Source: Heteronotia binoei
Taxonomy: Eukaryota
Assembly: GCF_032191835.1 (NCBI RefSeq)
Contig: NC_083227.1
Span: 39,246,001 to 39,310,000 of the forward strand
Direction: 5' to 3'
Length of the DNA: 64,000 bases
The notes below the pieces were generated by a model. That model had not been told where the DNA came from. It ran no database searches and saw nothing but the letters and a program-made list of their open reading frames with translations. Each line of letters opens with the position of its first letter. Positions within the stretch are counted from its first letter, which is position 1. This document shows positions 2,245 through 47,594 of the stretch, piece by piece. Position numbers and translations under genes: made by a program.

Positions 2245-3032
2245 GCAGAAGAAGGAACATGTACCTCCGCAAAAGACCAGCCTCAAGATTAATACAAAAT
2301 TTACAAGTATTTTATAAATGAAAAACAATGTGTCAATTTAAGGTGAAATAAATCACAAATCAATAATAGAACAATACCCGTGCCCGCAACCCAAAGTCTC
2401 ACAAAAAGCAAATAAATGCCAGTCTATTCAACAGGTGGGTCCAGGCAGTGGTGAAGGTTGATTCTTCTGCAGAGTCCAAAGCTCCAATATTTCTTCGCAA
2501 GATTTCACCGAAGTAATCCAGTGCAGCAAGGCACATGAAGGACGCGACAGGGATGTACTTGAAGCCTCGGTGGCATTGTAGCTCTTGAAACTCCTTCCCT
2601 GGACTTCCTTTGACAGGGAAGGAGCTTCAAGAGCTACAGCGCCACTGAGAATAGAGATATGTAATGCCATCACTTCTGACTCGGCTTGTAGAAGCTTTTT
2701 GGTGAAATTGGGCTTCAAGTACATCCCTCTCGCGCCCTTCACGTGCCTTGCTGCACTGGATTACTTCGGTGAAATCTTGTGAAGAAATATTGGAGCATTG
2801 GACTCCACTGAAGAATCAACCTTCACCACTGCCTGGACCTACCTGTTGAATAGACTGGCATTTATTTGCTTTTTGTGAGACTTTGGGTTGTGGGTATGGG
2901 TATTGTTCTATTATTGAATTGTGATTTGTTTCACCTTAAATTGACACATTGTTTTTCATTTATAAAATACTTGTAAGTTTTGTATTAATCTTGAGACTGG
3001 TCTTTCACAGAAGTACACTTTCCTTTTTCTGC
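2245..3032. repeat. Long imperfect inverted repeat (322-bp arms) with an internal hairpin
   Basis: Arm 2245-2566 is the reverse complement of 2711-3032 with scattered mismatches; a second hairpin lies at 2567-2650. Confidence 0.9.
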
Positions 3033-3170: not shown

Positions 3171-3758
3171 TGTCATGGGTGCTGGGGACCCTGTAGAGGA
3201 AGTTGAGCCTGCAGCAGAAACTGTGCCCCTGCCACCTGCACCAGTGCCCCTGCCTCCTGCTGGAGAAGATCCCAGCCCCCCTGCCTCGCCCTCTCGGGTG
3301 GTGCGTGTGCGTGACCGCCTCCGTCAGGACCTCAGGGATCGGAGGAGGGCGGCACGCTCACAAGCAAGACGCTCCCTGAGCCCTGAGTTTTGAGAGGATT
3401 CTGGCCCTTCTAAGAGCAAGGATGCTTGAGTTGCAACAGGATCCTGGCTGCCTCTCTGAGCCAGCAATTAGCCCAAATGGGCAACAGCCAGCAGAGGGCT
3501 ATATAGCTGTAGGCTTTGGGAGGAGGCTTTGTGGAAGCAACTAGTCATCTACCTGACGTCCTAGCATCCACTTCGGCTTTTGACTTTGGACCTCCTGACC
3601 TTGGCTTGACTTCTGGACCCCCTGACTACGGCTTCTGAACCTCTGACCTACGATACCTGGACAACGATTTGGCTTTGGCACCTTGGACACTCTTGCTCAC
3701 CGGTTACAGACCTTGGACTGCCCCTGGACTTCGCCTGGCCTGGCCCCAGCTCGTGACA
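3171..3758 (+). repeat. 5' LTR
   Basis: tgtcatgggt...gctcgtgaca; no difference from the 3' LTR found by eye; TATATA at 3500-3505. Confidence 0.96.
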
Positions 3759-3760
3759 GA

Positions 3761-3770
3761 TTGCTTCCAC
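3761..3770 (+). promoter_or_regulatory. Self-priming primer-binding site
   Basis: TTGCTTCCAC is complementary to GTGGAAGCAA at 3531-3540, 31 nt after the start of the LTR TATA box; no tRNA-type TGG PBS present. Confidence 0.75.
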
Positions 3771-3794
3771 CCACACAAACACCCATTCCACAGG

Positions 3795-4685
3795 ATGGAT
3801 GCTGAAGCAAGTGGAACCGCAGGACTACTGGCTGCCCTCCAAGCCCAGGTACAGCAGCTGACACAGGCAGTAGTGCACTTGCAGCAACAACCTGTGGCCA
3901 GTGCTCCAGCCAAGTGCCCAGTTCCCCCACCTGACAGATTTGGGGGTGCTGTGGAAGAATTTCCTGCGTTCCTGGCACAGTGTCAGCTGTACTTTGAACT
4001 AAGAGCACGGGACTTCCCCAATGACAAGACGAAGGTGTGTTTTATCATTAGTCTGTTAAAGGGGCAGGCGGCCAAGTGGGCCACACCCCTACTGGTTGGG
4101 TCCTCTCCCCTACTGACTGATTACCAGGGGTTTGAGGCCCACCTGTCTGCTGCCTTCTCCAACCCAGTCCAAGCAGCCACAGCCAACCGGAAAATCAGGG
4201 CCCTGAAACAAGGCCAGTCCTCGGTGGCTCAGTATGCCACCGAATTCAAGCTCCTGGCCCAAGACTTGGCGTGGAATGAGGCTGCTCAGATGGACCAGTT
4301 TACCGAGGGGTTGGCAGAGGAAGTCCTGGACGAACTGGCCAGGGTGGAGCGGCCCCCCACGCTCCAGGAACTTATCACCCTCTGCCTCCGCATCGATGGC
4401 CGCCTGGAAAGTCGCCGCCAAGCCAAGACCCGAGGGCGCCAGCTCCCTGCGCCATGCCACTTGGCTCCTCTCCCATCCCCAGCTAGTACCAGAGACGAGG
4501 GTGAGCCTATGCAGCTTGGAGCTGCTCGACCCCGCCTGACTCCAGAAGAAAAGGCCAGACGCCGCACGCAGAACCTGTGCCTCTACTGCGGCACGGCAGG
4601 CCACTATGCCTCTGGCTGCCCTGCTAAACATCGAATACCCAGACCTACATTGCCACCGCCGCCAAAAGGCCAGCCCCAGGCGTAA
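3795..4685 (+). CDS. gag: Gag (retrotransposon gag domain plus CCHC zinc knuckle)
   Basis: ATG at 3795 (MDAEASG); capsid motifs PDRFGG and FLAQCQLYF; [14 protein letters not shown] knuckle; PEG10/RTL1-like. Confidence 0.92.
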
Positions 4686-4720
4686 GTGGACCCTCCAGCC
4701 TGGGGCGACTAGCTGGGTCC
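4661..4720 (+). promoter_or_regulatory. Putative -1 ribosomal frameshift signal (G CCA AAA heptamer plus H-type pseudoknot)
   Basis: Stem 1 GCCCCAGGC (4673-4681) / GCCTGGGGC (4698-4706); loop GGACCC pairs with GGGTCC (4715-4720); pol is in the -1 frame relative to gag. Confidence 0.7.
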
Positions 4721-7700
4721 TCCGAACAACAGGCTGATACCCCGGGCCCGTTCCTGCTACCAGTCAAACTCCATCTGCCCGATGGACGCTGGCTGTTCGT
4801 GTATGCCATGCTGGACTCGGGAGCGGCCCACTGTTTCGTAGATGCCGCCTTTGTAAAGCAGCACCAGATCCCAGTGCAGCCAAAAGAGATTCCGACACTG
4901 GTGGAGGCTATTGACGGGCGCCTCCTCCGTTCTGGCCCCGTCACCCAGGAGACCTGTCCCATCACCTTCCACGTCCAGCAGCACCAAGAACAGCTGCAGT
5001 TTGATGTCGCCCGCATGCCTCGCTTCCCGCTGATTCTAGGCCTTTCCTGGCTGAAGCTGCACAACCCCATCGTGGACTGGGCTCAGCAAGAACTACGCTT
5101 CCGAGACCCATGCCCCCATCTGACTCCTCCCACCACTCTAGCAGCCGGCATCCCGAGTGGTGGTCCTCAGCTCCCTCAGAAGTATGCAGATTTCGCCGAT
5201 GTCTTTGAAGAGACAGGAGCAGATCAGCTTCCCCCTCACCGACCCTATGACTGTGCCATTGATTTGGTACCTGGGGCACCACTCCCGGTGGGGCGTCTGT
5301 ACCCAATGTCGGAGCCTGAGTTGGCAGCTTTGCGAGACTACCTGGACAAGAACCTGAAGCGCGGATTCATCCGACCCTCAACTTCTCCCCTGTCTGCTCC
5401 AGTCCTCTTCGTGAAGAAGAAAAGCGGGGAGCTCCGGCTGTGCAATGACTACCGGGCCCTGAACAAGATCACCATCCGCGACCGGTACCCTCTACCACTG
5501 ATCCCTGAACTCTTGGATCGTTTAAAGGGGGCCCAAATCTACACCAAGCTGGACCTCCGCGGAGCGTACAATTTGGTGCGCATACGGCCCGGAGACGAAT
5601 GGAAGACCGCGTTTGGGACCCGATACGGGCAGTACGAGCACCTGGTGATGCCCTTCGGATTGACCAACGCCCCCGCTGTCTTCCAGAGGTTCATGAATGA
5701 TGTATTCCGGGACCTGCTCGACCGCTTCGCAATCATATACCTGGATGACATTCTAATTTACTCCCGCAATCCTGCCCAGCATGCCGAGCACGTCCGCCAG
5801 GTCCTACAGCGCCTACGCGCCCATGGCCTCTACGCCAAGCTGGAGAAGTGCGACTTTGACCTGCGCTCCGTCGAGTTCCTTGGTCACATTGTGTCACCAC
5901 AGGGAATCCTCATGGACCCGAAAAAGGTGGAAGCGGTCCTGACCTGGCAGGCCCCTCAGAATCGCAAAGACCTGCAGCGGTTCCTTGGTTTTGCCAACTA
6001 CTATCGGCAATTCATCCCAGCCTATGCATCTCTGACAACACCCCTGACTCAACTACTCCGCCCCAAAGAACCTTTCCACTGGTCCCCAGAGGCCGATAAC
6101 GCTTTCTCCACCCTGAAGACCCGCTTCGCCACCGGGCCACTCCTGAGATACCCCGACCCCCAGCTTCCCTTTACGGTGGAAGCTGATGCCTCCAACGTGG
6201 CCCTGGGAGCAGTGCTGTCCCAGCGCGAGGAGCCGTCCCAGCCACTCCAGCCCTGCGCCTATTACTCACGCCAGCTCACTGCGGCAGAGAGGAACTACAC
6301 CATCTGGGAGAGGGAGTTGCTCGCGATCAAGGTGGCTTTTGAGGTTTGGAGACATTACCTTGAAGGGGCTCGCCACCCTGTCCAAGTGCTCACCGACCAC
6401 CGGAACTTGGAGCATCTCCAGACCACCCGCCGTCTCAACCAGCGCCAGATCCGGTGGTCCCTATTCTTCTCCCGCTTTGACTTCAAGATCACCTACATCC
6501 CCCATACCCAGAACCGGAAAGCCGATGCGCTCTCGCGGAAACCGGAATACGCTCCTGCTTCGACTGAGACCGTGCCTGCTGCTCCCATCCTGCCACCCTC
6601 AGTGTTTGCAGCCACCTCCACTTCACCAGCACTCGTGGAGGACATTCGTGCTAGCCAGGCCAATGATCCCTGGGTCCAGCAACACCTCCAGGCACTCCAA
6701 GATGGCTCAACAGGCGAGTTCACGACTCGAGGCGGCCTCTTGCTACACCACGAACGCCTCTATGTGCCGCCCGGGCCCTTGCGGGCAGAAGTACTACGCA
6801 TGACCCACGACGCTGGGCACTTTGGACAACATAAGACCACCCACTTGCTGACACGGGAATTCTGGTGGCCACGAGTTCGCTCCGATGTTGCCCGTTATGT
6901 CAGCTCCTGTGACGTCTGCCGACGGGCCAAAGACGTCCCAGCCAAACCCTCGGGGTTGTTACAGCCCTTGCCCACACCCTCAGGACCCTGGGATACCATC
7001 TCGATGGACTTCATCACGGAACTTCCACGATCCAAGGGTCAGACGTGCATCTTGGTGGTCGTCGACCTATTTACCAAGATGGCCCACTTCATTCCGTGCC
7101 CGAAACTTCCCACAGCTCAGGAGACAGCCCAGCTCTACCTGCAACACATCTTTCGTCTGCACGGACTCCCAGCCCACCTGATCTCAGACCGGGGCCCCCA
7201 GTTCTCCTCTCGGTTCTGGCAAGCCCTCCATTCCAGCCTGGGGACTCGAGTGCACCTGTCCTCAGCTTACCACCCACAGACAGATGGTCAGACAGAGCGC
7301 ACCAATGCCACGCTAGAGCAATATCTCCGCTGTTACACCTGCTACCAGCAGGACGACTGGATCACTCTGTTGCCTCTAGCGGAATTTGCATACAACAACG
7401 CGGTCCATTCCTCCACCCAAATGACCCCGTTTGCTGCAACCTACGGGTACCACCCTCGGTTCTTCCCGGCGATCCTGCCACCCACGAATGTCCCCGCCGT
7501 TGAGGCCTACCTGCAAGAACTCCGCGCCAGCCAAGACTTGCTCCGAGAGCAGCTACAGCGGGCCAAGGAAGCCTATAAACTAGCTGCGGACCGGAAGAGG
7601 CAGGAAGGCCCCCCAATCCAGCCGGGGGATCAGGTGTGGCTCTCAACTCGCTACCTGCGCCGGCCTGGTCGGTCTCACAAGCTGGATGCGCGGTTCATTG

Positions 7701-8305
7701 GACCCTACCCTGTCTTAGAACAAATAAACCCCGTCGCCTTCAGGCTCCAGTTGCCACCCCACCTCCGCATTCACCCCGTGTTCCATCGCTCCCTCCTTGT
7801 TCCAGCTGCACGCCCTGACCCAGCTCGGCCTCCTTCTCCACCGCCACCACCACCAGTGTTGGTGGATGATGAAGAAGAATACGAGGTGCGCCAGATCCTG
7901 GACTCCCGGTACCATCGTGGAGGCCTCCAGTACCTTGTGGACTGGGAGGGATACGGCCCAGAAGACCGGTCTTGGGAGCCCGTGGACAATCTTCATGCCC
8001 CAGACTTGGTGCAACGGTTCCACAACGACCACCCCGACCTCCCAGGCCCCTCGACGGAGGGGGGCCCTGGGGGGGGGGATAGTGTCATGGGTGCTGGGGA
8101 CCCTGTAGAGGAAGTTGAGCCTGCAGCAGAAACTGTGCCCCTGCCACCTGCACCAGTGCCCCTGCCTCCTGCTGGAGAAGATCCCAGCCCCCCTGCCTCG
8201 CCCTCTCGGGTGGTGCGTGTGCGTGACCGCCTCCGTCAGGACCTCAGGGATCGGAGGAGGGCGGCACGCTCACAAGCAAGACGCTCCCTGAGCCCTGAGT
8301 TTTGA
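4661..8305 (+). CDS. pol: Pol: aspartic protease, RT, RNase H, integrase, chromodomain and an LTR-encoded C-terminal tail
   Basis: LDSGA protease, YLDDILI RT, EADAS RNase H, H-X-H...C-X2-C zinc finger, DFITELP/SDRGPQF/TERTN integrase, EYEVRQILD...YLVDWEGY...SWEP chromodomain; frame is open from the slip site to a stop inside the 3' LTR. Confidence 0.95.
8069..8082 (+). promoter_or_regulatory. Polypurine tract
   Basis: G-run followed by atag immediately before the TG of the 3' LTR. Confidence 0.8.
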
Positions 8306-8670
8306 GAGGATTCTGGCCCTTCTAAGAGCAAGGATGCTTGAGTTGCAACAGGATCCTGGCTGCCTCTCTGAGCCAGCAATTAGCCCAAATGGGCAACAGC
8401 CAGCAGAGGGCTATATAGCTGTAGGCTTTGGGAGGAGGCTTTGTGGAAGCAACTAGTCATCTACCTGACGTCCTAGCATCCACTTCGGCTTTTGACTTTG
8501 GACCTCCTGACCTTGGCTTGACTTCTGGACCCCCTGACTACGGCTTCTGAACCTCTGACCTACGATACCTGGACAACGATTTGGCTTTGGCACCTTGGAC
8601 ACTCTTGCTCACCGGTTACAGACCTTGGACTGCCCCTGGACTTCGCCTGGCCTGGCCCCAGCTCGTGACA
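8083..8670 (+). repeat. 3' LTR
   Basis: 588-bp direct repeat of 3171-3758, followed by the TSD GCACT. Confidence 0.96.
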
Positions 8671-9139
8671 GCACTCAATTATTCCGTATGCAGACCGATT
8701 CCCATAGGGTATAATGGAAAATTGATATGTGGGTATCTGGGACTCTAGGGGAGCTGTTTTTTCAGGTAGAGGCACAAACTTGCAGCATAACATCCAGTAC
8801 TGCTCCACAAAACATCCTCCAAGTTTCAGAAAAAGTGGACCAAGGGGGCCCGAAAGAAGACGCCCTTATCCTTCATTATTCCAAATGGTGGGAAGGCATT
8901 TAAAAGGAGCATAGTTCCTTTAAATGTGATGGCCAGAATGCATTTCGGAGTTCAATTGTGCTTGTCACACCCTTGCTCCTGGCTCTGCCCCCAAAGTCCC
9001 CAGATATTTCTTGAGTCAGACTTGGCAACTCTCTTGAAAGCTGATGCAAGTTCCTAACATGTTCTGTGATAAAAACTTAGGGAAGTGCTACCTTCTGAGC
9101 CAGGAATGCTGAACATCCTTAAATAAGCAGTTCTCTTAC

Positions 9140-10632
9140 CCGGTTCTGGCAAACTCCGCCCAGTATCGCATCACTTGGGGGATTAGCTCTAATTCTGCCT
9201 CTGTGTGAGTTACATTGGTTCCCGGTAACAATGTCAGAGTTCCAAAAATGTAAGGGACCTCAGATCCATGGGTAGACCCCATCCATTCAGGCCAAACGGA
9301 GCCACTGCTACGATGGGTGAAAGTGTAAGCATACACAGGGATTCCACTCTTTGCAGTCTCTGTGGCAATTCTGTTTGCTGGACATACAAAGGAATGATCA
9401 CCCAAGGCCTGGGACAAGGCAGAACGATAACGTGCTGGGCCTTCTGGTTCTGCTTCGCTGTACCTCTGAGCAATGGATTGGATGAAGTCTTCAGTTGCAT
9501 TGTGTACATTCAATTTTAGCCCCTCCAAGAGCTGCTCCCAGGTCAAAAGGCTTTCATTGAATGTATGTAAGTAAGGAGCAGCAAAGAAGATATATACAGA
9601 ACCTTCATCAGAGGTGGTACCAATCATAATAGGCTTAGACTGAAAGTGCCCAGACTCCACAAGTTTCTGTGGGTCATCAGGAAGGAAATCTCCATCTGTT
9701 GTTGGCATGAAGGGAAACTCCAGAACAACCTTGGGATCCACAACCACGAATGTATATTTTGGAAATTCTTCCATTTTCTTTTCCTGCAAGCACTTCACTA
9801 TGGCACTGTCTTCACCTTCTGTACAGCCCATCAGCTTGGCCAAGACCAAAGCTCTCCTCTTTGCCTCCTCAGGACTCTCCCAAGTCCAGGGTGCAATGGC
9901 CGTCCCACTCTGCAGCACAGCACGATCAAATAGAGACTGACTCCCTGGTGAGAGGAGGTGATAATTGACAGCCGTTCCTCCAGAACTTTCACCAAAAATG
10001 GTTATCTGAATCGGGTCTCCTCCAAAAGCAGCTGCATTCTCCCTCACCCATCTTAGGGCCAACTGCTGGTCGAACAAGCCCACATTTCCTGGGGCAGCTG
10101 GTGGTAATGAAAGGAAGCCTAGAGCTCCCAGACGGTAATTCATGGAGATCACAATAACATTCTCGGTAGCAGCTAGGAATGCCCCATTATATATGACCAG
10201 GGAAGTTGAGCCAATAAAAAATCCGCCACCATGGATCCAGACAAGGACTGCAGCGGGTGTGGAAGGCTGGGGATGGGGCACCCAGACATTGAGGAAGAGA
10301 CAGTCCTCCGAATGGGGTGTGGTGACATTAAATATGGAGGCACCAGGAGTGCCTGAAATAGCTATTTGAGGGCATGAATTTCCAAAGCTGGTGGTTTCCA
10401 GGATGTGTCTCCATGGCTTATGGGGAACAGGCTTCTGGAAACGCAATTTCCCCACGGGGGGTTCTGCATAGGGGATGCCCAGATAAGCTGTGACGTTTCT
10501 TGAGCCAGCTGGGACATGTTTCCCCTGGATAGGGCCACTGCTGGTGACTACTATAATTTCACCTTTAGCAGAAGACTTGAGTTCCAGAAGGGAGAGGAGC
10601 AGGAATCTCATCCAAAAGAAGCGTCTAGTCAT
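9140..10632 (-). CDS. Cholinesterase-like carboxylesterase copy A, large coding exon (BCHE exon 2 equivalent, 497 codons + 2 nt)
   Basis: Acceptor tttcag then 8 nt to ATG (MTRRFFW, signal peptide); SEDCLFLNVW, WIHGGGF, GESSG, DEG, HGSE; ends FART-gg|GTAAG. Exon 3 not found in the window. Confidence 0.93.
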
Positions 10633-10781
10633 TGCAGCACCTGAAAGGGAAGGATCCCAGAAGAAGTTACCACCCATCTCAAAAAAAGAGAAAAAAAAGA
10701 AACAGGCCATTTCACCATTCTATTTTCCCCTTGGTTCTGAGGGCCAGATATCTCATGAGTCTGATGAACAAAGGCCAATAT

Positions 10782-13265: not shown

Positions 13266-14080
13266 AACCTATTGGTTGTTGTACATTTTCTGGGCTATGT
13301 GGCCGTGGTCTTGGCATTGTGAGACCTAATGTTTCGCCAGCAACTGTGACTGGCATCCTCAGAGGTTTAACCCAGAAAACTGGAGTTCTCTCTGGGTCAA
13401 ATTGAGAAGATGTTGGTAGAGAGGTAATTTATATCTACTCAGGCAGGTGGGGTAGGAATGAGCCATTATCCTGTAGGAGTTTCCTGGGCTGTGACATGCT
13501 AATGGAGGAGCTTACTTGAAGGGTTTCTTTTGTATATGGATTGGCTAGTGAAATTCTACTGTTATCTATAGTGCTGTTGTAAGCTGTAGGGCATTTTGTG
13601 TTTTTCAGGATTGGAAACCATGCCCTACTCATTTTTAAACTTTCTTTCTTCCTGTTGAAATTGTGTTTATGGATTTCAATGGCTTCTCTGCGTAATCTAA
13701 CATGGTAATTGGATGTGTTGTCTAGCATTACAGTGTCTAGGAATAAGATACTGTGTTCTGTTTGAGTTAGGCTATGTTCAGCCACTGCTGATTCTTCAGG
13801 TTGGCCAAACCTGCAGTGTCTTTCATGTTCTTTTATTCTTTTCTGGATGCTACATTGTGTGGTCCCGATGTAAACCTGTCCACAACTGCAGGGTATGTGG
13901 TATACTCCTGCAGAAGCGAAGGGGTCTCTTCTATCTTTTGCTGATCGTAGCATCTGATGTATTTTTCTGGTGGGTCTGAACACTGTTTGTAGGTTATGTT
14001 TCTTTATAAGTTTTCCCATCTGATCCGTGATTCCTTTGATATATGGCAAAAACATCTTTTGTGTGGGAGACTGTTTTTCT
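13266..14080 (-). mobile_element. Penelope-like element 3' part (GIY-YIG endonuclease and pLTR)
   Basis: ORF 13435-14055 has LPYIKG, GVYHIPCSCGQVYIG and EAIEI motifs; hammerhead-like motif at 13325-13365. Confidence 0.88.
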
Positions 14081-14084
14081 TCAG

Positions 14085-17000
14085 TTGTTCATTTTTTGTG
14101 TTTAAAGAATTTTATTAATAACATATGGTAAAAATATCCATTAATAACTTTTTTTAAATCTTTCCCATATGCTATTTTCTAAATCCCCCTCCCCCCGTTA
14201 CTTGACTCCCGCCGATGTTATAAACTTAAAATGCTAACACTTAAAGGTACCCTTAAACCATATAAACCATATAAACCTAGATTCATATTTCTTCTTTTTT
14301 CTAATACTGAATCATTATTAAAAAATTGTCCAATGTCCTTTTATTTTCCATTGTTTTTCTACATAACCTCTAAACTTTTTCCACTCCTTTCTATAAACTT
14401 CCAAATCATAGTCTCTTAAGATTCTTGTTAGTTTATCCATCTCACTCCATGCTATAACTTTTGTAATCCAATCCTATTTTTCTGGTATTTTTTCTTGCTT
14501 CCATAACTGCGCATACAGGCATTATGCTATGTATTTGGTCATGGACCGTAATAAAGCAAACTGAAACTGCGCATACAGTGTCCTAGCCACTGAAAGCAAG
14601 TACCAAATCAAAGTTCTATCTTCTTTCGGAAATGTTTCCATTTGTAATCCCAACAGAAATGTCTCTGCAACTTTCTTAAATTCATATCCCAAGATCCTAG
14701 AAATTTCTTGTTGAATCATCTGCCAATACTTTTTTGCTCTTTCACAAGTCCACCACATATGGTAGAAAGAACCTTCATGTTTTTTACATTTCCAACATCT
14801 ATCTGGCATCTTATTGTTCATCTTTGCCAACTTTTTAGGAGTCATATACCATCTGTACATCATTTTAAAACAGTTCTCTTTAATACTCTGACATGTTGAA
14901 AGTTTCATAGAGTTCTTCCAAAGATATTCCCATGTTTCCATCTGTATTTCTTTATTTACATTGATTGCCCATTTAATCATTTGAGATTTTACTACTTCAT
15001 CTTCCGTAGACCATATATATTTTTGAAATTAATTTTTCATTATCTCCAAGCAGAGCTTTCTCCATTTCTGCTTTCTCTCATCTTATTCCTTCAGCTTTGA
15101 TATCATTTTCCACCAAGCTATTTGTTGCATTTGAAACCAGTCATATTTGTTATTCAACTTCTCCATGGATTTCAATTCTATTTTACCACTTTGTATTTTT
15201 AATAATTGATTGTATGACAACCCTCTTTCTTCGCCGGTCTTAGCTGTTATTTTTATCACGTCTTCTGGCACTATCCATAATGGCTTTCTCTCATCACCAT
15301 ACTTCTTATACTTCATCCATATATTTAACAGATTATTTCTTATATAATGGTGAGAGAAAAAACCATCCATTTTTTCTTCCCATAGTACATGTAAGCGTGC
15401 CAGCCGAATTTATTTCCATGACCTTCCAACATTAAAAGCTTTTTATTTGACAGCGTCACCCAATCTTTTATCCATACTAAGCAAACTGCATCATGATATA
15501 TTCTTAAGTCTGGTAGCTGGAATCCTCCTCTCTCTTTAGCATCTGTTAAAATTTTCATTTTAATCCTTGGTTTCTTCCCAGCCCAAACAAATTCTGAAAT
15601 CTTCCTTGGCCATTTATTGAATTGTTTACTATCTTTCACAATCGGAATAGTTTGAAACAAATACATTATTCTCGGCAAAATGTTCATCTTAATTGCAGCT
15701 ATTCTGCCCAGCAATGTCAAATTAAGTTTATTCCATTTCAGCAAATCTTCATCCATCTTATGCCATAGCTTTTCATAGTTATTTTTAAACAAATCAATAT
15801 TCTTCATTGTTATCTCCAAGCCCAAATATTTTACTTTGGAAGCAACTTCACATCCCTTCAATTTCTGCAATTCCTTTTGTTTGTTTGCTTGTATATTTTT
15901 ACATAAAAGTTTTGACTTTTCTTTATTAACATAAAATCCCGCCAATTCTCCATATTCTTGTATCTTAGCTAACAACAAAGGTGTTACTTGTACAGGATTT
16001 TCAGTTATGAACATTATGTCATCAGCAAATGCTCTATATTTATAAATAGATCCTCTGATTTTTAGCCCTTCTATTTCTTTATCATCTTGTACTTGTATCA
16101 GTAAAATTTCAAGAGTCATAATAAACAACAATGGTGAAAGCGGGCAACCTTGTCTTGTACCTTTACTAATCATCATATTATCTGTAAGATCTGCATTTAT
16201 ACACAACTTTGCACTTTGTTCCATATAAATTGCTTTTATCATTCTTATAAAGTGCTCTCCAAGTTCTATCTTTTCCATAACTGCAAACATAAAGTCCCAA
16301 TTCAAATTATCAAAAGCTTTCTCTGCATCCACAAAGAATAATGCAACCTCTTTTTCTGGATGTTTTTCATAATATTCTACAATATTAACAACTGTTCTTA
16401 TATTATCTCTTATTTGTCTTTTAGGGAGAAATCCTGCTTGATCTTCCTTTATAAAGTTCCTCAAATATTGTTTAAGTTGTTCTGCCAAGATTCTTGTGTA
16501 TATCTTATAATCAATATTTAATAATGAAATTGGTCTATAGTTCTGTACCTTCGTGACATCTCTATCTTCTTTAGGTATCAACGAAATTACAGCTTCCTTC
16601 CAGGTATTTGGTATTTTCCCTTTTATTCTTATCATATTCATCAATTTTTGTAATTTTGGTACTAATTCTTCTTTAAATTTTTTTTAAAAATTTAGCCGTA
16701 TATCCATCTGGCCCAGGCGCCTTACCAATTTTCATTGCATTAATTGCTGCTTCAATTTAAATTTTTTCAATTGGATCATTCAAAATTTTCATATTTTCTG
16801 TTAGGGGTGCTATTTTGACATTTTGCATGTACTCTTCAATCTTTTCTTTTCTTATTTTCACACCCTTAAATAAGTCGGCATAATACTTTAAAAATTCTCT
16901 TTTTATTCCTTCTTGATCTACTATCTCTCTTCCACCAGTCACAATTTTGCTAATAGTTTTACTTTCTCTCTTTTTCTTCAATTGCCAAGCTAAATACTTT

Positions 17001-18010
17001 CCAGGTGTATTTGCACCCTCAAAAGATTTCTTTTGCAATTTTTTCAAATTCCATTCAATTTCTTTGTTCAGCAAATGTCTCATTTGAGTTTGTAATATAG
17101 TAATCTCCCTTATAATTTTCTTTTTCCCTGGCCTTTTTCTCAGTTCCCCTTCTTTTTTCTTTATCTATTTTGAATGTCTAGTCTCTGTTTTTTGTTCACT
17201 CTTTTATCCTTATTATTTAATGTAATCAGTATTATTACAGCTTTATAAGCGTCCCATACCATCTTAAATTCTATATCATCTTTATCATTTATTTGGAAGA
17301 AAGCTCTTGTTTCATTTTCTAGAAATGTCACTGTTTGTTTATTTTGTAACAAATCTTCATTTATTCTCCATCTTCTTGATTTTTTTTTGCAATTTTGTAA
17401 TCCATAATATTGGGTTATGATCAGCACTTATCTTTGTTAAAATCTCTACTTTTTTAGTTATGAGGCCCAAATCTTTAGTACCCCATAACATGTCAATTCT
17501 GGAAGAAGTATTATGTCTCGCTGAAAAAAAAAAGTATAGTCTCTTACTTCCGGGTTGAATTTTCTCCAGATATCTTCCAAATTTTCTTGTTTAACCAGTT
17601 CTAAAAAAGATTTTGGCAGTTTTCCTTCCTTGTTGTTACTTTTTTTACCAGACCTATCCATTTTGTTCTGTATTGTTCCTTTAAAATCCCCCATCATCAA
17701 TATCTGGTCATAAGTCACTTCATCAAGCTGTCGGGTAATGTCTTTGAAAAAAGCATCTTTTGCACCATTTGGTGCATACAGTCCTCATAACAACGTTTTC
17801 TTTGCATTTATTATCTCTACTGCCACATATCTTCCATCCTTGTCTTTAAATATCAATTTTGGCTCTAATTGTTGATTAATATAAAAAATCATGCCCCTTT
17901 TCTTTTGTTCCGCCAATGAAAAAAATTCCAATCCTGATTGTTTATTCCATAAATATTTGTAATCCTTTTGTTGTATATGGATTTCTTGTAAACAAATTAT
18001 ATTACAATTT
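14085..18010 (-). mobile_element. 5'-truncated, degenerate L1-clade LINE (ORF2: EN, RT, Cys-rich C-terminus; 3' UTR)
   Basis: Frameshifted pieces: MMGDF (EN), YRPISLLNIDYK, DAEKAFD, GTRQGCPLSP, FADD (RT), CWKC...HMWWTC; A-rich tail near 14090. Confidence 0.92.
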
Positions 18011-19572: not shown

Positions 19573-22500
19573 GCTGTCAGCATATAAAAATGCTCAATAA
19601 GGCATTAGACTAGTGACCACTGAGATCATGCTGATCTAAATGACAGTCAGTGTCAAAAAGATGACATCAGTGTTTAGCAAGTCTCAACAAAGGATGAGCT
19701 CCATAAGGCTTTGAACAGCAATGCAGAGAAGACGTCAGCATGGCTGATATTTCAGCAACCCAGCTTTTCAAGAAGCTCACCTCCACTAACTATAGTGTGT
19801 GGGCTCTTTGTATGGAGCATTTCCTCAAGTAAGAGGGTCTGTGGTTGATGGTCGAAGCACCTCCAGCCCAGCTTGATGATGAGGACGCGGTAAAGAATGA
19901 GAAAGCACTGGCTAACATCGTCCTTAGTGTGGGAGACGACCAGCTCGTTCATGTGTCCAGTAAGATCACAGCGAAAACTGCCTGGGACAGTCTAAAAGCA
20001 GTCTATTACAAAGTACTGCTGGCTCCCTGATTGCTATTACTCGTTGGCTATACAGGACAGTAATGAAGCCAGGAGAGTCTGTAAGGGCACATTTAAATGC
20101 TTTGGTGGAATGATGCCAACAGTTAGAGCAGAGGGGGAAGATGGTGCCAGAAGAAGATAAAGTATACATGATTCTCAGCTCGCTGTCTGCTGAATTCAAC
20201 ATGCTTATTACTTTGCTTGAGACAGCTGAAGCAAACAAACTGACTTTGGCATACATGACCGGTCGACTTCTCAAGGAGGAGAAGAGGATACAGGAGTTGA
20301 GTTACACTCAGGCTTGGCAGCGATCCAGACTGGGGGAGAAAACGAAAGCAAGCACCAGCAGTTCTCTTGATGACGCCAGGAATCGGCATGGAGAGGCGTC
20401 GGAGGTGGCTCTAAAGGTGCAGAAATGTTTTTGTTGTGGCTCAGCGATGCTCTTAAGCATGCTTGTCCTGAGGGGAAGAACAGGTGGAGGCAAGGAGGAA
20501 AGTCTAAGAGTTCAATGGATTGCTCCAAGGCTTCGCTGGTGGTGACAGATACTACTGCTGCTCCAGGAGTGTGGATTTTAGACTTGGGGGCATCACAAAA
20601 TTTCTGCAAAGATGAACATTTGCTCCATGACAAAAAGCCTTCTGATCTTCAGCATGTTAGTTTGGCTGATGGACGTAGTTCTGAGGTATTATGTCAGGGG
20701 CATGTAAATTTTCCAGCTTTGCAGCACACTTTCTCTGAGGTGCTGTGCGTTCCCTCATTAGAGATCAATTTACTAAGTGTGCCTGTCTTAGATAAGGCTG
20801 GGTTTACTGTCACTTTTGCTGACAAGACTTGTACAGTCATAAAAGGAGGGAAAGTGCTGGGAGTTGGGAGATTACAGAACAATGTTTACGTTCTTGAGAA
20901 CTCATCAGGAACAGCTAAAGCTGTAACCAATTCTAACCCTCATGACAATTATGTACATTTAATGCACAGGAGATTGGGGCATGCTAGTTTCCATGTTCTA
21001 TTGTGGGGAAGGGGTGTGTGAAAGATTGCAGTCAGTTCCTTGACTGTGAGGTATACAAGTGCACTAAATCACAAGCTTTCCCTGTAGCTCGCAAGAGCGA
21101 TAGCGTCGGCAAGGCCACTAGCTTTAATACATGCAGATCTGATTGGTCCGTACCCCAAAAGCCACTCCAATAGCAAATTTGCTTTAATCCTGATGACTGC
21201 TCCAGGTTTTCTTGGATGTATGTGTTAAAGCAGAAATCAGATTTATTCACCACTGTGACATACTGGTACAAAAAAGTACAAAAGCAGTTGGGTAATCTGT
21301 GTGCTATTCAAACAGATATGGGAGGAGAGTTTATGTCCTCTGCATTTAAAAGGTGGATGCACATACATGGGATATCTCATAGAGTGGCTAATGTAGCAAC
21401 ACCTCAGGAAAATGGGGTTGCTGAATGAAAAGGTGGAGCGTTGCAAACAATGATGCATTCTAAGTTAAAAGATGCTGGGTTACCTATCAGTTTTTGGGCA
21501 GAAGCTTTAAAAGCTGCTTGCGATGTGAACAATAGACTCTGGTCTAAACCCATTGATAGCATTCCATATAAGATGCTATATAACAAAAATCCCAACCTAG
21601 ATCATGTAAGAGTGTTCCGTACCAAAGTTCCAGTTACCCAAAGGAGAAAGGGAAGTGCAAGATCTAAAACCCCTTCTTTTTATGGGTTACCAAACCGGCA
21701 TGAAAGCCTATCGGTTTGCTAACTATCACCAAAATATTAGCTTCAACTGATCAGCTAACTTTTGTGAACACCAAGGGTGGCAAAGAATCCATGCTAATGA
21801 TTTGCCTGATCAGGTTGCACTGCCTATAACTACTGAGGAACAAACCACTACTGTAAAACAGGAAATAAGTTCTTCTTCGACTAGTGTCTCTGTGGGTGAA
21901 CAAAGTGCAGCAGTACCTAGAAGGTCAACAAGGAGTACTAAGGGTGTACCTCCTGAGAGATATGGGTTTGAAAATACCTCAGTGAATCATGTTTATGTGA
22001 GAGAGCCACAAAGCTTTCAAGAGGTATTAAATATGCCAGGACTGGAAAGGGTTGCTTGGCAGGAGGCCATGCAGAGGGAGTACAGCTCATTAACCGAAAA
22101 TTATGTGTTTTCTTTTACTTGTCTGCCAGTTGATAAAAAGGCTATTGGATATTGGTGGGAGTACAAAGTGAAAACACTGCCAGATGGTCAAATGCAGAGA
22201 AAAGCAAGATTGGTTGCTAGAGGTTTTTCTCAAATAGAAGGAGAAGACTATGATCAAGTATTTGCTTCAACTGTAAAAGCAGATACTTTAAAAGCAGCAT
22301 TGTGTAAAGCAGGGCAAGACAAGATGCAGGTGCATCACTTTGATTTTACCACTGCTTACTTAAATGCACATCTAGAGAAAGAATTGTATATGGAACAGAT
22401 ACCAGGTTTTGAAAACTCAAACAAAACTTTGGTTTTGAAACTCAACAAAGCATTATGTGGCTTAAAACAAAGTGCCAGGGAATGGAACCAGTGCTTGAGT

Positions 22501-23425
22501 AAGGCATTGATTGATTTTGGGTTTGAACAAGGTATAGCTGAACCCTGTATGTTCTGCAAAACAATTGAGCGAACAAAATGTTACTTATTAGTTTTTGTGA
22601 ATGATATCTATTTTTTGTTCCACACTGACACACAATTGAAATGGTTTATGGAGTCAACTCAAAATTTGTTCAAGATGAAACACTTAGATAACATACAACA
22701 CTATTTGGGAGTTGACATAAGCAGAGACTCACAAGGATGGTTTAGTCTAAATCAGAAAGAAAAAATATTTAAACTCCTTGAAAAATATAACATGCTGGAT
22801 ACACATTGTGTAGACTCACCAATGACTACAGGTTATAAAAACGAGCCTGATGAAAGAGTATTTGAGAACAGGTCTATGAATCAATCTCTAATCAGTTCAT
22901 TGCTGTATATTGCATGTTAATCCAGACCTGATATATGTTTTGCTGTACACATGTTGTGTCAGAAAAGCTCAAATTCTTATGTTAAGGACTGGGTTGCAGC
23001 AAAAAGGATACTCAGATATCTTAAGGGTACTGCCAACTATACAATGGTGTTAAAAGCAAATGAGGCACAACAAATCACTGCCTACAGTGACTCAGGCTGG
23101 GGTGATAGGTAGGATGGTAGATCCACATCAGGGTATGTTGTGTACATAAATGTTGCATTGGTATTGTGGAAATCATTAAAACAGACCTATGTGGTCACTA
23201 GTACTTGTGAAGCGGAATAAGCTGCACTTAATGATTATGTAATACAACTAGAGTGGCTATATCAATTACTGCTTGATCTAGAAATACAATGCGAACTGCC
23301 AATACGTGTGTTCTGTGACAACACTGCAGCTCTGCAATTAGCAGATGCACAAGGAATAAAACCATGAAACAGACACATTAACATCAGGTATCAAAATGCA
23401 CAGAAATATTTGGGTCAGTAACAGA
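19573..23425 (+). mobile_element. Degenerate Ty1/Copia retrotransposon (gag-PR-IN-RT-RH); no 3' LTR seen
   Basis: Gag LTSTNYSVW at ~19740, zinc knuckle remnant, WILDLGAS protease, HRRLGH, IQTDMGGEF integrase, KARLVARGFSQ RT, VFCDN RNase H; many stops and frameshifts. Confidence 0.9.
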
Positions 23426-27415: not shown

Positions 27416-27675
27416 ACATGAACATATGAAGCTGCCTTATACTGAATCAGACCCCCCAGGATCCATCAAATTCAGTATTGTCTACTCAGACTGGCAGTGG
27501 CTCTCCAGGGAGGTTTTTCCAGGGAGGTTTTTCAGGGAGGCGTGAAAAACCTCTCCAGCGGAAGTTTTTCATGCCTACTTGCCTGGACCCCCTTTTTTAG
27601 TGGAGATGCCGGGGATTGAACTTGGGACCATCTGCTTACCAAGTAGATGCTCTACCACTGAGCCACCATCCCTCC
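27414..27675 (-). mobile_element. tRNA-derived SINE with a CR1-like tail
   Basis: Minus strand ggtggctcagtggtagagcatct...ggtcccaagttcaatccccggc (A/B boxes) and a catatgttcatgtt tail. Confidence 0.65.
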
Positions 27676-28221
27676 CCTATGGCTTCTCTAATGTTCATAT
27701 GTTACAAGTGAAATGTTATTACCCACAAGAAGGGCATAAAAGTCAGCACAGTGTACTGGTTAGAGTATTGGATCCAGGAAATCCATGTTCAAATTATTCT
27801 TGCATGAAATTTGCTTGGGTGACCTTTGGGCCGTCTGTCTGTCTGTCTATCTCACTCTATCTCTAGGTGCCTACCTATCTCACAGGGTTGTTAGAGGATT
27901 TAAATCAGCAAGGGGAGAACATGGTACATTGGCTTTAGTCCCTGGGGGGGAATAAAAATGTACTACTAATAAATATGTCTCTAATAAAGAAATGCATTTA
28001 ACTAATATATATAGTTGAGGCTATGTCTAGTTAACAGACTGGCATTTCTCTCACAGGTAACCGACACTGGCATGTATTGAAAGCAAATGTCAGTTCCTAA
28101 CATGTTCTGGGATAGAAGAACCTGAGGGAAATGCTACCTTTGTATCTTTGGAGCCAGCAATGGTGAATGTCCATATATAAATTGTATATGGTGAATGTCC
28201 ATATATAAACCGTTCTCTTAC

Positions 28222-29109
28222 CCGCTTCTGGCAAACTCTGCCCAGTATCGCATCACTCGGGGGATTAGCTCTAACTCTGCCTCTGTGTGAGTTACATTGG
28301 ATCCCAGTAATAAGGTCAGAGTTCCCAAAAGGTATGGGACCTCAGACCCATGGGTTGACCCTATCCATTCAGGCCAGATGGAGTCATTGCTGCGATGGGT
28401 GAAAGTGTAAGCATACACAGGGATTCCACTCTTTGCAGTCTCTGTGGCAATTTCATTTGCTGAACATACAAAGAAGTAATCACCCCAGGCGTGGGCCAAG
28501 GCAGAACGATAGTGTGCTGGGCCTTCTGGTTCTGCTTCTCTGTACCTCAGAGAAATGGATTGGATGAAGTCTTCAGTTGCATTGTGTATGCTTATGTTAA
28601 GCCCTTCCAAGAGCTGCTTCCAGGTCAAAAGGCTTTCATTGAATGCAAAGAAGACAAACAAGGACCCTTCGTCAGAGGTGGTACCAATCATAATAGGTTT
28701 AGACTGAAAGTGCCCAGACTCCACAAGTTTCTGTGGGTCATCAGGAAGGAAATCTCCATCTGTTGTTGGTATGAAGGGAAAGTTCAGAACAACCTTTGGA
28801 TCCACCACAAGCAATGCACATATTGGAAATTCTTCCATTTTCTTTCCCTGCAAGCAACTTACTATGACACTGTCCTCACCATCTGTACAGCCCATCAGCT
28901 TGGCCAATACCAAAGCTCTCCTTTTTGCCTCCTCAGGACTCACCCAAGCCCATGGTGCAATGGCTGTCCCACTCTGTAGCACAGCACGGTCAAATAGAGG
29001 TTGACTCCCAGGTGAGAGGAGGTGATAGTTCACAGATGCTCCTCCAGAACTTACACCAAAAATGATTATCTGAGTCGGGTCTCCTCCAAAAGCAACTGCA
29101 TTCTCCCTC
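28222..29109 (-). pseudogene. Copy B, 3' ~60% of the large exon (5' end missing)
   Basis: Open frame RENAVAFGGDPTQIIIFGVSSGG...HGSE...FARS-gg|GTAAG; homology to A/C/D stops abruptly at 29109. Confidence 0.88.
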
Positions 29110-29758
29110 CCGCTTGGAGTGGGCCTGGAGGAAGGCTAATAGAGCCTTACGTATTGCCATGGAGTCGGGATTGGGTGTTTATGTGCCCTACCCATCCATC
29201 ACAGCCAGTTGTGCTGATTTGTATAGGCCTGATGGGGTGCATCTTTTGATAAAGGGCAACGAGGCATTTTTGGCTGAGTTATGGCAGGGGCTGGAACATG
29301 TTCTCGTTTAGTGGGGGACAGTGGCCTAAGCTGAGGCTTGGCTCTGTCTGTAGCGGTTTTACTGTTGGAAACATGTTATTTTGGGGTATTGGTGAGCTCC
29401 CATGGCAACGCACCATTGGGGTGTAGGGCGTCCCTGGGGTGACCTAAGCTGTACTGCTCAAGGTTGACTCCAGGGAGCCTCGGGATCCCGTCACTATTGA
29501 GTTGTCCACATCCCAGGCTGTACGGCTCAGGTGAGGGTGGAGCTTTGTGAATGGGATCTCGTGCCTGGCCGGTCGGGTTTGAGCCGTTGTGTCGGCTCAC
29601 ACCCGAGTCCCGGGGCTCGCCCAGTTTTTGGGTCAAGGAGGTGGTCTGGTTATGACCCCTGGCTTGACCTGGCCCCATTTTCCCCCATTGCCATTAAGTT
29701 TTTAAAAAGTGGCCCTTTATTCCACATTGTTGTCTCGTTATTCTGAATGGGGGGGCAA
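29110..29758 (+). mobile_element. 3' fragment of a tyrosine-recombinase retroelement (Ngaro/DIRS-like) with an SGNH-hydrolase C-terminus
   Basis: Translation ADLYRPDGVHLLIKGNEAFL (SGNH block V, DxxH) to a stop at 29311, followed by a GC-rich terminal repeat-like segment. Confidence 0.6.
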
Positions 29759-31791: not shown

Positions 31792-31970
31792 GAGGCTGTG
31801 TCTACTTAACATATTGGCATTTCCTCCCACAGGAGACCAACACTGGCAGGTATTTAAAGTGGATGCCAGTTCCTAACATGTCTTGTGATAGAGAAACCTT
31901 AGGGAAGCACTACTTTCTGTATTTTTGGAGCGAGCGATGGTGACTGTCGATATATAAACAGTTCTCTTAC

Positions 31971-33454
31971 CCGCTTCTGGCAAATTCCGCCCAGTATCGC
32001 ATCACTCGGGGGATTAGCTCTAACTCTGCCTCTGTGTGAGTTGCATTGGTTCCTGGTAATAAGGTCAGCGTCCCAAAAACGTATGGGAGCTCAGATCCAT
32101 GGTTTGACCCCATCCACTCGGGCCAGACAGAGCCAATGCTACGATGGGTGAAAGTGTAAGCATACACAGGGCTTCCAGTCTTTGCAGTTTCTGTGGCAAT
32201 TTCGTTTGCTGGACATACAAAGAAGTAATCACCCCAGGCATGGACCAAGGCAGAACGATAGTGTGCTGGACCTTTTGGTTCTGATTCATTGTACCTCCAA
32301 GCAATGGATTGGATGAAATCTTCTGTTGCATTGCATATGCTTATGTTCAGCCCTTCCAAGAACTGCTCCCAGGTCAAAAGGGTTCCATTGAAGTAAGGAG
32401 CAGCAGCGTAGACAAGCACAGACCCTTCATCAGAGGCGGTACCAATCATAATAGGCTTAGGCTGAAAGTGCCCAGACTCCACACATTTCTGTGGATCATC
32501 AGGAAGGAAATCTCCATCTGTTGTTGGTACAAAGGGATGGTGCAGACCGGTCTTGGTTTCCAACATAAACAATGTATATATTGGAAATTCTTCCATTTTC
32601 TTTTCCTGCAAGCAACTCACTATGGCACTCACCTCACCTTCTGTACAGCCCATGAGCTTAGCCAGGGCCAAGGATCTCCTCTTTGCCTCCTCAGGACTCT
32701 CCCAAGTCCAGGGTGCAATGGCCGACCCACTCTGCAGCACAGCACGGTCAAATAGATGCTGACTCCCTGGTGAGAGGAGGTGATAGCTGACAGACACTCC
32801 TCCGGCACTATGACCAAAAATGGTTATCTGAAATGGGGCTCCTCCAAAAACAGCTGCATTCTCCCTCACCCATCTTAGGGCCAACTGCTGGTCGAACAGG
32901 CCTATGTTCCCTGGGGCAGCTGGTGGCAATGAAAGGAAGCCTAGAGCTCCCAGACGGTAATTCATAGAAACCACAATGACATTCTCGGTAGCAGCTAAGA
33001 ATGCCCCATCATATATGGCCAGGGAAGCTGTGCCAACAACAAATCCCCCACCATGGATCCAGACAAGGACTGCAGCAGGTGTGGAGGGCCGGGGATGGGG
33101 CACCCAGACATTGAGGAAGAGACAGTCCTCTGAAAGGGGTGTGTTGGCATTGAATATGGCAGCATCAGGAGTGCCATTAACAACTACTTGTGGGCACGAA
33201 TTTCCAAAGTTGCTGGCTTCCAGGATATGGCTCCATGGCTTATGGGGAAGAGGCTTCTGGAAACGCAATTTCCCCACAGGGGGTTCTGCATAGGGGATGC
33301 CCAGATAGGCTGTAACATTTCTTGAGCCAGCTGAGAGATGCTTTCCCTGGATAGGGCCACTGCTGGTGACTACTGTAGTCTCATTTTCAGCAGAAGTCTT
33401 GGGTTCCAGAAGGGAGAGGAGCAGGAAGGTCAACCAAAGGAAGAGTCTAGTCAT
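31971..33454 (-). CDS. Cholinesterase-like carboxylesterase copy C, large coding exon (546-aa protein with exon 3)
   Basis: Acceptor +8 nt ATG (MTRLFLW); GGGF, GHSAG, DEG, HGSE; donor gg|GTAAG; 494 codons + 2 nt. Confidence 0.93.
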
Positions 33455-34040
33455 TGCAGCACCTGAAAGGGAAGAATCCCAGAAGAAGTTACCATCCAAT
33501 TCAAAAAAAGAAAAGAAATAGGCCATTTCCCTTTTCTATCCTCCTCTTGGTACTGAGGTTCTTGGTCATGAGTTCTTGGTCTTGGTTCTTGGTCATGAGT
33601 TTGAGTAACAATGTTTGAGCCAATATGATAACTACACTTTAACTTAGTGAACATCCTAGGTGTTCAGGATAGAATTATTTTTTTAGGATATTTCTATGTT
33701 CCCTCTGCAGAGTGCTCCACATGGTGATTTACATTTAGTACCTATGCATATGAAGTATCCAGACTTCCTCAGTCACAGGAAAGGAAACCCAGGAGTTGCA
33801 CAGAAGCACCAAAGTGTTGTGCAGAAGCAAAAAACTTCTTTCAACAAACATGCAAGAGGGGGACAAACAACTCAGTATTGTCTCTGTTGTGAGTACAAAG
33901 TCCCATGGAAGTCAGTTTTCACTTCAGTCAGCATCACATTTAAATGAGGACTTAGGTCTGGTGTGCATGTATTAAATGCTTTCAAGTCGCTTCTTATATA
34001 TGGCCACCCTATGAACTGATTTCCAAAACACCCTTCTGTG

Positions 34041-42844: not shown

Positions 42845-43867
42845 CTGAACAGGAGGCAAAAACATCATGATTCACAAATCCAGAGAAGCAGCTAGTTCTC
42901 TGTGGATTACAGGATTAAAAAAACCCTAAAACCAGTAAAATGCATACTTTGGTAAGGTCCCTACTACATTAATTGAATCTGGAAAACCCTACATCCCTGT
43001 CAACATTTATCTAAGAATTTGCGTGTTATTAGTGGCACTACAAACGAATATATCTGCTATTTAATATCCTTCACCAAGGTGGTGACTCAGGTGACCATGT
43101 CTTCTGAAATTGCATAGGCAATAACCAAAGCAAGGGGTCTTTTCTATGGGGAAGCCCCAGTTTTGGAATATGTGCCAGATACTTGCTTCAATATCCTCTG
43201 GGTGCCAATTCCAGCCAATTCTATTTCCCCAAGTTTTTAATGAGAAACTTGCTGTTTGCCGTAATGTGATTTTAAAAACTTTCTGATTTCTTGTTATTTC
43301 ATCCCTCTTAGTAAGAACTGCTTTTATATTTTCACTAGTTACCTTGGAGGCAGAATTTATTGCCCACAAGAAGGGCATAAAAGTCAGCACAGTGTACTGG
43401 TTAGAATATTGGATCCAGGAAATCCATGTTCAAACCCTCATTCTTGCATGAGATTTGCTTGGGTGACCTTTGGGCCATATTCCTCCCCCTCTGCCTACCT
43501 ACCTCACAGGGTTGTTAAAAGATTAAAATTGTCAAAGAGGGAACACTGTACTTTGACTTTAGCCCCTTGGAGGAAGGGTGGAATGCAAATGTACTAAGTA
43601 ATAATAAGAAATATCCCAAATAAACAAATTCATTGAACTTTATATCATCTATCTATTTATCTGTTCATTGCATTATATATTATATGCAACTATATATATA
43701 TAGTTGAAGCTGTGTCTAATTAACATATACGTTTTGCCTCCCACAGGTATTTAAAGTGGATGCCAGTTCCTAACATGTCTTGTGATAGAGAAACCTTAGG
43801 GAAGTGCTACTTTCTGTATTTTTGGAGCCAGCGATTGAGAATGTCCATATATAAACAGTTCTCTTAC

Positions 43868-47058: not shown

Positions 47059-47594
47059 TGTCACATTCTCAGGGTGCAGGCAGGCAGAAGTCCAAAGCCA
47101 GCCCAAGGTCAAAGTCCAGGAAGTCAAGCGGGAGCCAAGTCACCAATGCAGAATCACAAACCGGAATCAGAAGTCAATGTCCAAAAGCCAAAAGGTGCCA
47201 AGGAAATCAAGCAGGTCAGGATCAGGAAAGAGCGTGGATGCAAGCCAGAGAATAGACTTGTTGCTTCCACAAGGTCACCAGGTCCTGGGTGGGAGCTATA
47301 AGGGAGTCTCAGTCAGCCTGCACCCTGGGTGGCAGTGACTGTTAGAACTCAGGGCTGAGAGATCTGAAGCATCGGCGTGCCTCATGTCTTCACTCTGAAA
47401 GTTCTTTACGGAGCCTGCTTCGAACTCTTGAGATGGGAGGAGGAGAGCTTGGAGGAGATTGATCATCAACAGCTGACACTGGTGCCTGGAGAGTGATTGA
47501 TGGGCCAGCTGCTGTTTGTTCAGCTGAGGAACTGGCTGGCAACTCTTCCAGGTCTGTTAACCCTTCCAGCTCCTCCTCGTCAGGGCTCATGACG
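47059..47594 (-). mobile_element. Solo LTR of a Gypsy family related to the 3171-8670 element
   Basis: Minus strand cGTCATG...GTGACA; TATA followed by GTGGAAGCAAC as in the intact element; empty site gtataatggcagc at ~56800; flanks ataat / ccaat. Confidence 0.82.

Follow-up and report, generated by a model that had tools for sequence, protein, structure and literature searches.

Results

The window, by which we mean the whole stretch of 64,000 nucleotides of Heteronotia binoei DNA analysed here, contains, at 3171-8670 (+), a full-length LTR retrotransposon whose two LTRs of 588 nt each are identical and which is flanked by a 5-bp target duplication (GCACT). Its 5' LTR (3171..3758, +; TG...CA) is followed by a primer-binding site (3761..3770, +) that is not tRNA-like: its 10 nt are complementary to LTR positions 361-370, located 30 nt downstream of the TATA box, which we infer to be the start of R. 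Self-priming of this kind is given as a trait of the Tf1/Sushi group in the accessible part of the source (PMC6317226). The gag gene (3795..4685, +) codes for a Ty3 capsid (Retrotrans_gag, DUF4939), while the pol frame (4628..8305, +), shifted by -1 relative to gag, comprises protease, reverse transcriptase, RNase H, integrase, SH3, chromodomain and a tail encoded by the U3 region. The chromodomain (7880..8026, +) matches Pfam Chromo at aa 1085-1133 and takes an HP1/CBX-like fold in the structural model. In a tree built without a named Amn or Sushi reference, the integrase groups with lizard and snake homologues (SH-like support 98), and the closest named homologues of the element are lizard and snake proteins; relatives sought in viral contigs were not found. 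The element is a young, self-priming chromovirus of the Tf1/sushi group (V-clade). Compared to sibling copies, its integrase has three codons fewer in the zinc-finger region at ~6810-6820 (1225 versus 1228 aa).

Apart from the retrotransposon, the window holds four long carboxylesterase/cholinesterase-like exons in a tandem cluster (9136-10719, 28218-29135, 31967-33535 and 43864-45384 (-)), which are 85-95% alike at the DNA level and the first of which matches Pfam COesterase. A foldback at 2245-3032, with 322-nt arms that are 93% complementary and 144 nt apart, is possibly a non-autonomous DNA element, and a tRNA-Thr call at 27600-27673 may be a SINE. Remnants at 13435-14088, 14522-17784 and 20114-22920 presumably represent a GIY-YIG/Penelope element, a LINE and a copia element.

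A sequence-only reading of this DNA had proposed that pol does not end behind the chromodomain, but continues through the polypurine tract (PPT) and 74 codons into the 3' LTR. This is indeed the case: the frame is open from 4628 to the stop codon at 8303-8305 (1225 aa), crosses the PPT (8056..8082, +), which is translated as G-G-P-G-G-G-D-S, and enters the 3' LTR (8083..8670, +) at position 8083. A run of G within the PPT (8069-8078, +) differs in length among copies and determines the frame into U3. The tail ORF lies, as that reading had noted, upstream of the TATA box (LTR position ~330, ~8412 in the 3' LTR) and also upstream of the inferred R start (position 361, 8443 in the 3' LTR); given this R start, it is located wholly within U3. 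The 5' LTR also contains the tail ORF, again upstream of the TATA box, and hence no transcription of this copy from the 5' LTR is expected.

The first part of the tail is an acidic, Pro-rich linker (8083..8206, +), which is predicted to be disordered and tolerates in-frame indels. It is followed by a predicted single Arg-rich helix of 28 residues (8207..8290, +), with 11 K/R among the 23 residues of tail aa 44-66, and by the end R-S-L-S-P-E-F-stop (8282..8305, +), an S-P-x-F/Y-COOH motif that is also found in fish elements. A basic helix had already been inferred from the sequence and is present in the structure prediction; the C-terminus, the best-conserved part of the tail, had been passed over. 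AlphaFold2 models the integrase C-terminus as a low-confidence linker, one helix that does not pack against the chromodomain, and SPEF as an unstructured end left free after the helix (pTM 0.45). Searches of Pfam and PDB sequences with the tail gave no match, Foldseek returned chromodomains and Ty3 integrase only, and a word-based tail search against longer proteins yielded nothing.

The window also holds a solo LTR of a second, older family (family B; 47059..47594, -) with a tail ORF at 47342-47590. This ORF has its ATG at LTR position 5 and encodes the peptide previously read from it, interrupted by one internal stop (TGA, 47390-47392). The suggestion that this TGA is a decayed CpG codon agrees with 29 family-B copies, chosen by upstream DNA and not by protein, of which 18 have a sense codon at this place and 11 a stop. 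Shared residues use different codons, as had been claimed, in 18 of 33 cases when the LTR of the element (family A) is compared with the solo LTR. In the ungapped core of this window pair, which was not selected by protein, differences fall on the three codon positions as 11/8/22 (p=0.019). A first look gave ~10,000 candidates for family B and a similar number for family A.

A profile search with the tail among 1.84 billion representatives yielded two matches, P0231 and P0230. The former, from a short contig, is a true homologue of the tail and the only one that the profile found outside the genome; the latter was rejected as an unrelated repeat protein. Genome searches with P0231, and then with the DNA of one match, led to families D, E, F and G. 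Since it was a protein search that brought up D, E and F, the sample favours protein conservation. A search with the PBS pattern mostly returned family-A subfamilies. Family D has a different but matching pair of PBS and R start. Family-G LTRs were multiplied in a large tandem segmental duplication (G000:C5:19.18-20.43 Mb, L413-L429).

Across a 39-codon core of six families (one real copy each; nucleotide identity 50-69%), the minimum numbers of changes at the three codon positions come to 36/30/77 (p=1e-6), with invariant columns distributed as 12/15/2. The distance from LTR start to stop codon varies (220, 229, 244, 250, 259, 265, 268, 280 and 283 nt), with the frame kept in all unbroken copies. 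In eight copies, the tail frame contains no stops versus 11 and 15 in the shifted frames, and a GY model gave an omega of 0.17 (lnL -821.5 compared to -859.7 at omega=1, 38 units better). The changes that separate families A and B number 55 N : 36 S, a ratio distinct from the 96 : 28 of private decay in B (p=0.010). Within young family-A subfamilies, the corresponding comparison of shared and private changes is not significant for the tail (16:14 versus 27:9, p=0.076), while the integrase gives p=1e-8. A plain NG86 omega of 0.25 (A versus B) was dropped as a measure of selection because a protein-selected B-versus-B control gave the same value. In the terminal motif of the lizard families, Pro is encoded by CCT, CCA or CCG, the last residue is F or Y and any stop codon is used, while the Ser codon AGC and the Glu codon GAG are invariant in all six, so that constraint at the DNA level may overlap. 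One young, active subfamily ends in S-P-E-W (9 of 58 in its class). The U3 tail is under protein-level purifying selection and is best taken as a C-terminal extension of integrase; the sequence-only reading had inferred a selected module made either in this way or from a subgenomic RNA.

How regularly is the tail fused to pol? A pattern across the junction detected 1037 family-A junctions in the genome. Among the first 100 listed, the G-run was as in the window in 56, three shorter in 2, one shorter in 32, two shorter in 6 and one longer in 4; thus, 58 were in frame (p=6e-7 versus one third) and 42 out of frame. The fused frame is the modal one, but fusion is not universal because the PPT G-run varies in length. 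From the first 67 family-A copies listed, 60 were examined individually (four already examined and a tandem trio were skipped), 33 of them in frame. Fused copies show a lower mean LTR-LTR divergence than out-of-frame copies (0.72, n=32, versus 2.88, n=25; p=0.028) and more often retain an open pol (28/33 versus 15/27, p=0.020), although 10 of the 29 LTR-identical family-A copies are already out of frame. The U3 frame itself is intact in 57 of the 60 regardless of the junction, and in one junction class pol stops just before the LTR. Of 30 family-D copies, chosen by likeness to a fused copy, 23 have the fused frame; the old family B, with 9 of 29, shows no enrichment. Heritable out-of-frame lineages, sought among 93 elements, were not found (28 changes versus 31.3 on average after shuffling, with 140 of 1000 shuffles giving a value no higher). 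Our reading is that the fused frame is the parental state and is eroded by homopolymer slippage in the PPT G-run. Out-of-frame G-runs may partly mirror homopolymer errors of the assembly, against which stands that five six-base runs show no indels in 38 elements; in RNA reads, indels of the G-run were sought at low depth and none was seen. A pattern for junctions without ATG scored at background level only (23 versus 29 in controls). At G000:C1:26.945-26.960 Mb, family-A elements form a head-to-tail array with 4924-nt spacing.

The terminal motif extends beyond lizards. We collected 229 homologous proteins (120 of 325 from one listing and 109 from another), 212 of which have a chromodomain anchor. 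S-P-x-[F/Y]-stop ends 43 of these 212, compared to a background of 0.12% (separately, 2 of 1782 frames). All named proteins among the 43 are teleost (catfish, carps and salmonids), and the end of a Hucho protein, RSLSPEF, is identical to that of the window element. Within the 43, position -3 is R in 37, position -2 is S/T/E/D in 40 and Glu occupies position +2 in 26; in 40, the junction reads x-V-x, as an in-frame PPT followed by TGT would give. Tail length in motif homologues ranges from 7 to about 90 codons, and fish elements retain the motif but lack the helix, the extreme being the 7-codon tail. The fish clade comprises 103 proteins, of which 41 end in the motif, 10 are in frame without it (some being near variants or apparently mis-spliced models), 19 lose the frame at the junction and another 33 terminate earlier; 41 of 51 in-frame proteins thus carry the motif, with tails of 13-26 codons. 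Among metagenome loci (80 of 412), DNA context was available in two, whose stop codons lie 88 and 22 nt behind a PPT-TG junction, the LTR start being inferred from this pattern alone; their Ser codons are TCT/TCC versus AGC in the window element. Many V-clade relatives among the metagenome loci stop before the PPT, and the tail is therefore dispensable in the clade.

Closer relatives differ at their ends. In five proteins from Anolis, which form the closest group whose tails are complete, S-P-x-F occurs internally only and the end is R-x-x-x-R-I-A-A-K, and tails from snakes, Rhineura and Podarcis lack the motif. The Arg-rich helix was seen only in squamate elements, whose tails are all acidic-then-basic with or without the terminal motif. 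FastTree groups the window element with Anolis and snakes and separates it from the fish clade as well as from the element with the 7-codon tail, so that ancestry with loss and convergence are both compatible with the tree. In P0001-P0005 (Anolis) and in P0092, the RRSARIAAK-type end follows an internal S-P-x-F-x-R-R and presumably resembles the HMGN nucleosome-binding core. In the V-clade-like loci L284, L285, L286 and L306, the frame takes in seven codons of the inferred LTR before it ends in R-x-x-C or R-Q-K-C, which may be a second terminal motif, and metagenome chromovirus integrases that are possibly fungal (L314, L319, L321-L323, L338 and L347) have a conserved S-R-L-E-V-E-x end just before the PPT.

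Discussion

Why should an integrase carry such an end? The conserved Ser, the aromatic residue at +3 (W in one subfamily) and the stop codon directly thereafter are features of ligands of tandem-BRCT domains, and a Ser that holds its place three residues ahead of the aromatic end irrespective of tail length is, at the level of sequence, the signature of such ligands. In the model, the motif forms a predicted coil with a free C-terminus at +3. The sources, as far as their text is accessible, describe close counterparts: BRCA1 reads pSXXF with a salt bridge to the free +3 carboxylate (PMC4728184), the Abraxas end is pS404-R-pS406-P-T-F, in which phosphate or Asp at -2 makes the BRCT dimer more stable (PMC4747905), gammaH2AX ends in pSQEY, with MDC1 also tolerating F (PMC11143218), and 53BP1 requires an unblocked C-terminus (PMC4688034). 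The -2 feature of Abraxas parallels the S/T/E/D found at -2 of the element motif.

We thus suggest that the S-P-x-F/Y-COOH end is phosphorylated and docks a host tandem-BRCT repair protein on the integration complex, a reading to which we give a probability of roughly one half and in which the choice of partner follows from a four-residue match. In this model, protease would release the tail together with integrase, and the predicted flexible acidic linker and Arg-rich helix would present the free end. A proline-directed kinase would phosphorylate the Ser, the R-x-x-S-P context being what we take to be a DYRK/CLK/CDK-like site. The phospho-motif would then bind the tandem BRCT of a protein of BRCA1, MDC1, MCPH1 or 53BP1 type, and the docked protein may act in chromatin tethering or in the repair of integration gaps. 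The squamate-only helix would add nuclear import or contact to DNA or nucleosomes.

The main competitor is a tail selected for nuclear localisation and for tethering integrase to chromatin or DNA, with the terminal motif serving as a regulatory phosphosite or as ligand of a non-BRCT reader such as a Pin1 WW domain or a degron receptor. We consider this a serious possibility, albeit a rather doubtful one. The acidic-then-basic layout of all squamate tails, the density of K/R and the predicted helix fit to it, as does the RRSARIAAK end of Anolis, which we assume to be akin to nucleosome acidic-patch binders. Integrase nuclear localisation signals are established, e.g. for Ty1 (cited in the accessible part of PMC3605345). 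Fish tails, however, hold the motif without any helix, and neither a localisation signal nor a simple pS-P reader would need a fixed aromatic residue at +3 with an immediate stop.

The sequence-only reading had also considered a separate protein made from a subgenomic RNA. An accessory protein starting at the ATG at LTR position 5, translated from such an RNA or by re-initiation after pol in the manner of nef or sag, appears improbable to us. The ATG is present in all lizard families of the genome and in P0231, and the idea would suit both the intact U3 frame at any junction and the junction class that ends pol just before the LTR. But this ATG belongs to the terminal inverted repeat, relatives from fish, Vipera, Crotalus and Podarcis have no Met at the junction, and the fused frame prevails. 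Moreover, a search of RNA reads for splice joints into U3, which covered about 6% of each of three runs and the element only thinly, found none; LTR reads mostly continue into unrelated flanks. Even less probable is a conserved DNA or RNA element of U3 with the peptide as passive read-through, for which the invariant AGC and GAG codons, the proximity of the family-D stop to the TATA box and the frequent loss of the junction frame could be quoted, but which is largely refuted by the third-position excess with its low omega, by frame-keeping indels in every family and by the motif ending most in-frame fish-clade proteins in spite of their short tails.

Returning to the docking model, a wider scenario is plausible, though tentative: the LTRs of vertebrate chromoviruses may conceal an imitation of the phospho-tail of gammaH2AX/Abraxas, either retained since fish and tetrapods split or having arisen repeatedly, by which integrase would capture BRCA1/MDC1-type proteins for target choice or gap repair, while PPT slippage would keep yielding tail-less integrase. 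For vertebrate gypsy elements, the motif names candidate host partners in the choice of integration sites and in the completion of integration. If true, a transposon would mimic a core tag of DNA-damage signalling, providing a vertebrate counterpart of Ty5-Sir4. Even with the wrong partner, thousands of solo LTRs in the genome carry a protein-coding remnant, and coding constrains LTR evolution in the clade, which bears on LTR annotation and dating.

Coding overlap with U3 is familiar from the retroviral genes nef and sag, which yield separate proteins from spliced RNAs; the overlap is shared by the window element, for which the evidence favours an extension of pol. Judged by the accessible parts of the published accounts, V-clade (Amn/Sushi) elements of the Tf1/sushi group are alike in gag, -1 pol, PR-RT-RH-IN-chromodomain order, self-priming PBS and vertebrate host (PMC2774666, PMC6317226); the U3-encoded tail ending in S-P-x-F/Y sets the window element apart and was not found described in the literature searched. 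The earlier statement that such a tail had not been described stands for the terminal motif: in the literature accessible to us, which does not extend to the original sushi/Amn descriptions or Repbase, we found no report of it or of its resemblance to BRCT ligands. It does not stand for the read-through as such, since the available text on plant CRM group A reports an integrase extending into the 3' LTR with a CR motif as putative targeting domain (PMC3059260, PMC3605345). There, the CR motif replaces the chromodomain and priming uses tRNA-Met, whereas the window element has its tail after an intact chromodomain, is self-priming and resides in an animal, and the tail has no Pfam match. A parallel of the proposed role is offered by yeast Ty5, in which, according to the accessible text, a short phosphorylated integrase motif was shown by experiment to bind the host protein Sir4 at its H-BRCT domain (PMC6394760; bioRxiv 10.64898/2025.12.09.692953). 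Ty5 is a copia element read by an atypical H-BRCT, whereas the window element is a gypsy element with a canonical tandem-BRCT consensus and putative binding. Abraxas and gammaH2AX share with the tail Ser at 0, the aromatic residue at +3 and the free C-terminus (accessible parts of PMC4747905, PMC4728184, PMC11143218 and PMC4688034); Pro at +1 and the phosphorylatable or acidic -2 also occur in Abraxas, whose counterpart H2AX has the Glu at +2. Both are host proteins with demonstrated phosphorylation and structures, and the S-P of the tail is not an ATM/ATR S-Q site. As we read it, an integrase reading into the 3' LTR was already known, and what appears new here is the S-P-x-F/Y end, together with its resemblance to ligands of BRCT domains.
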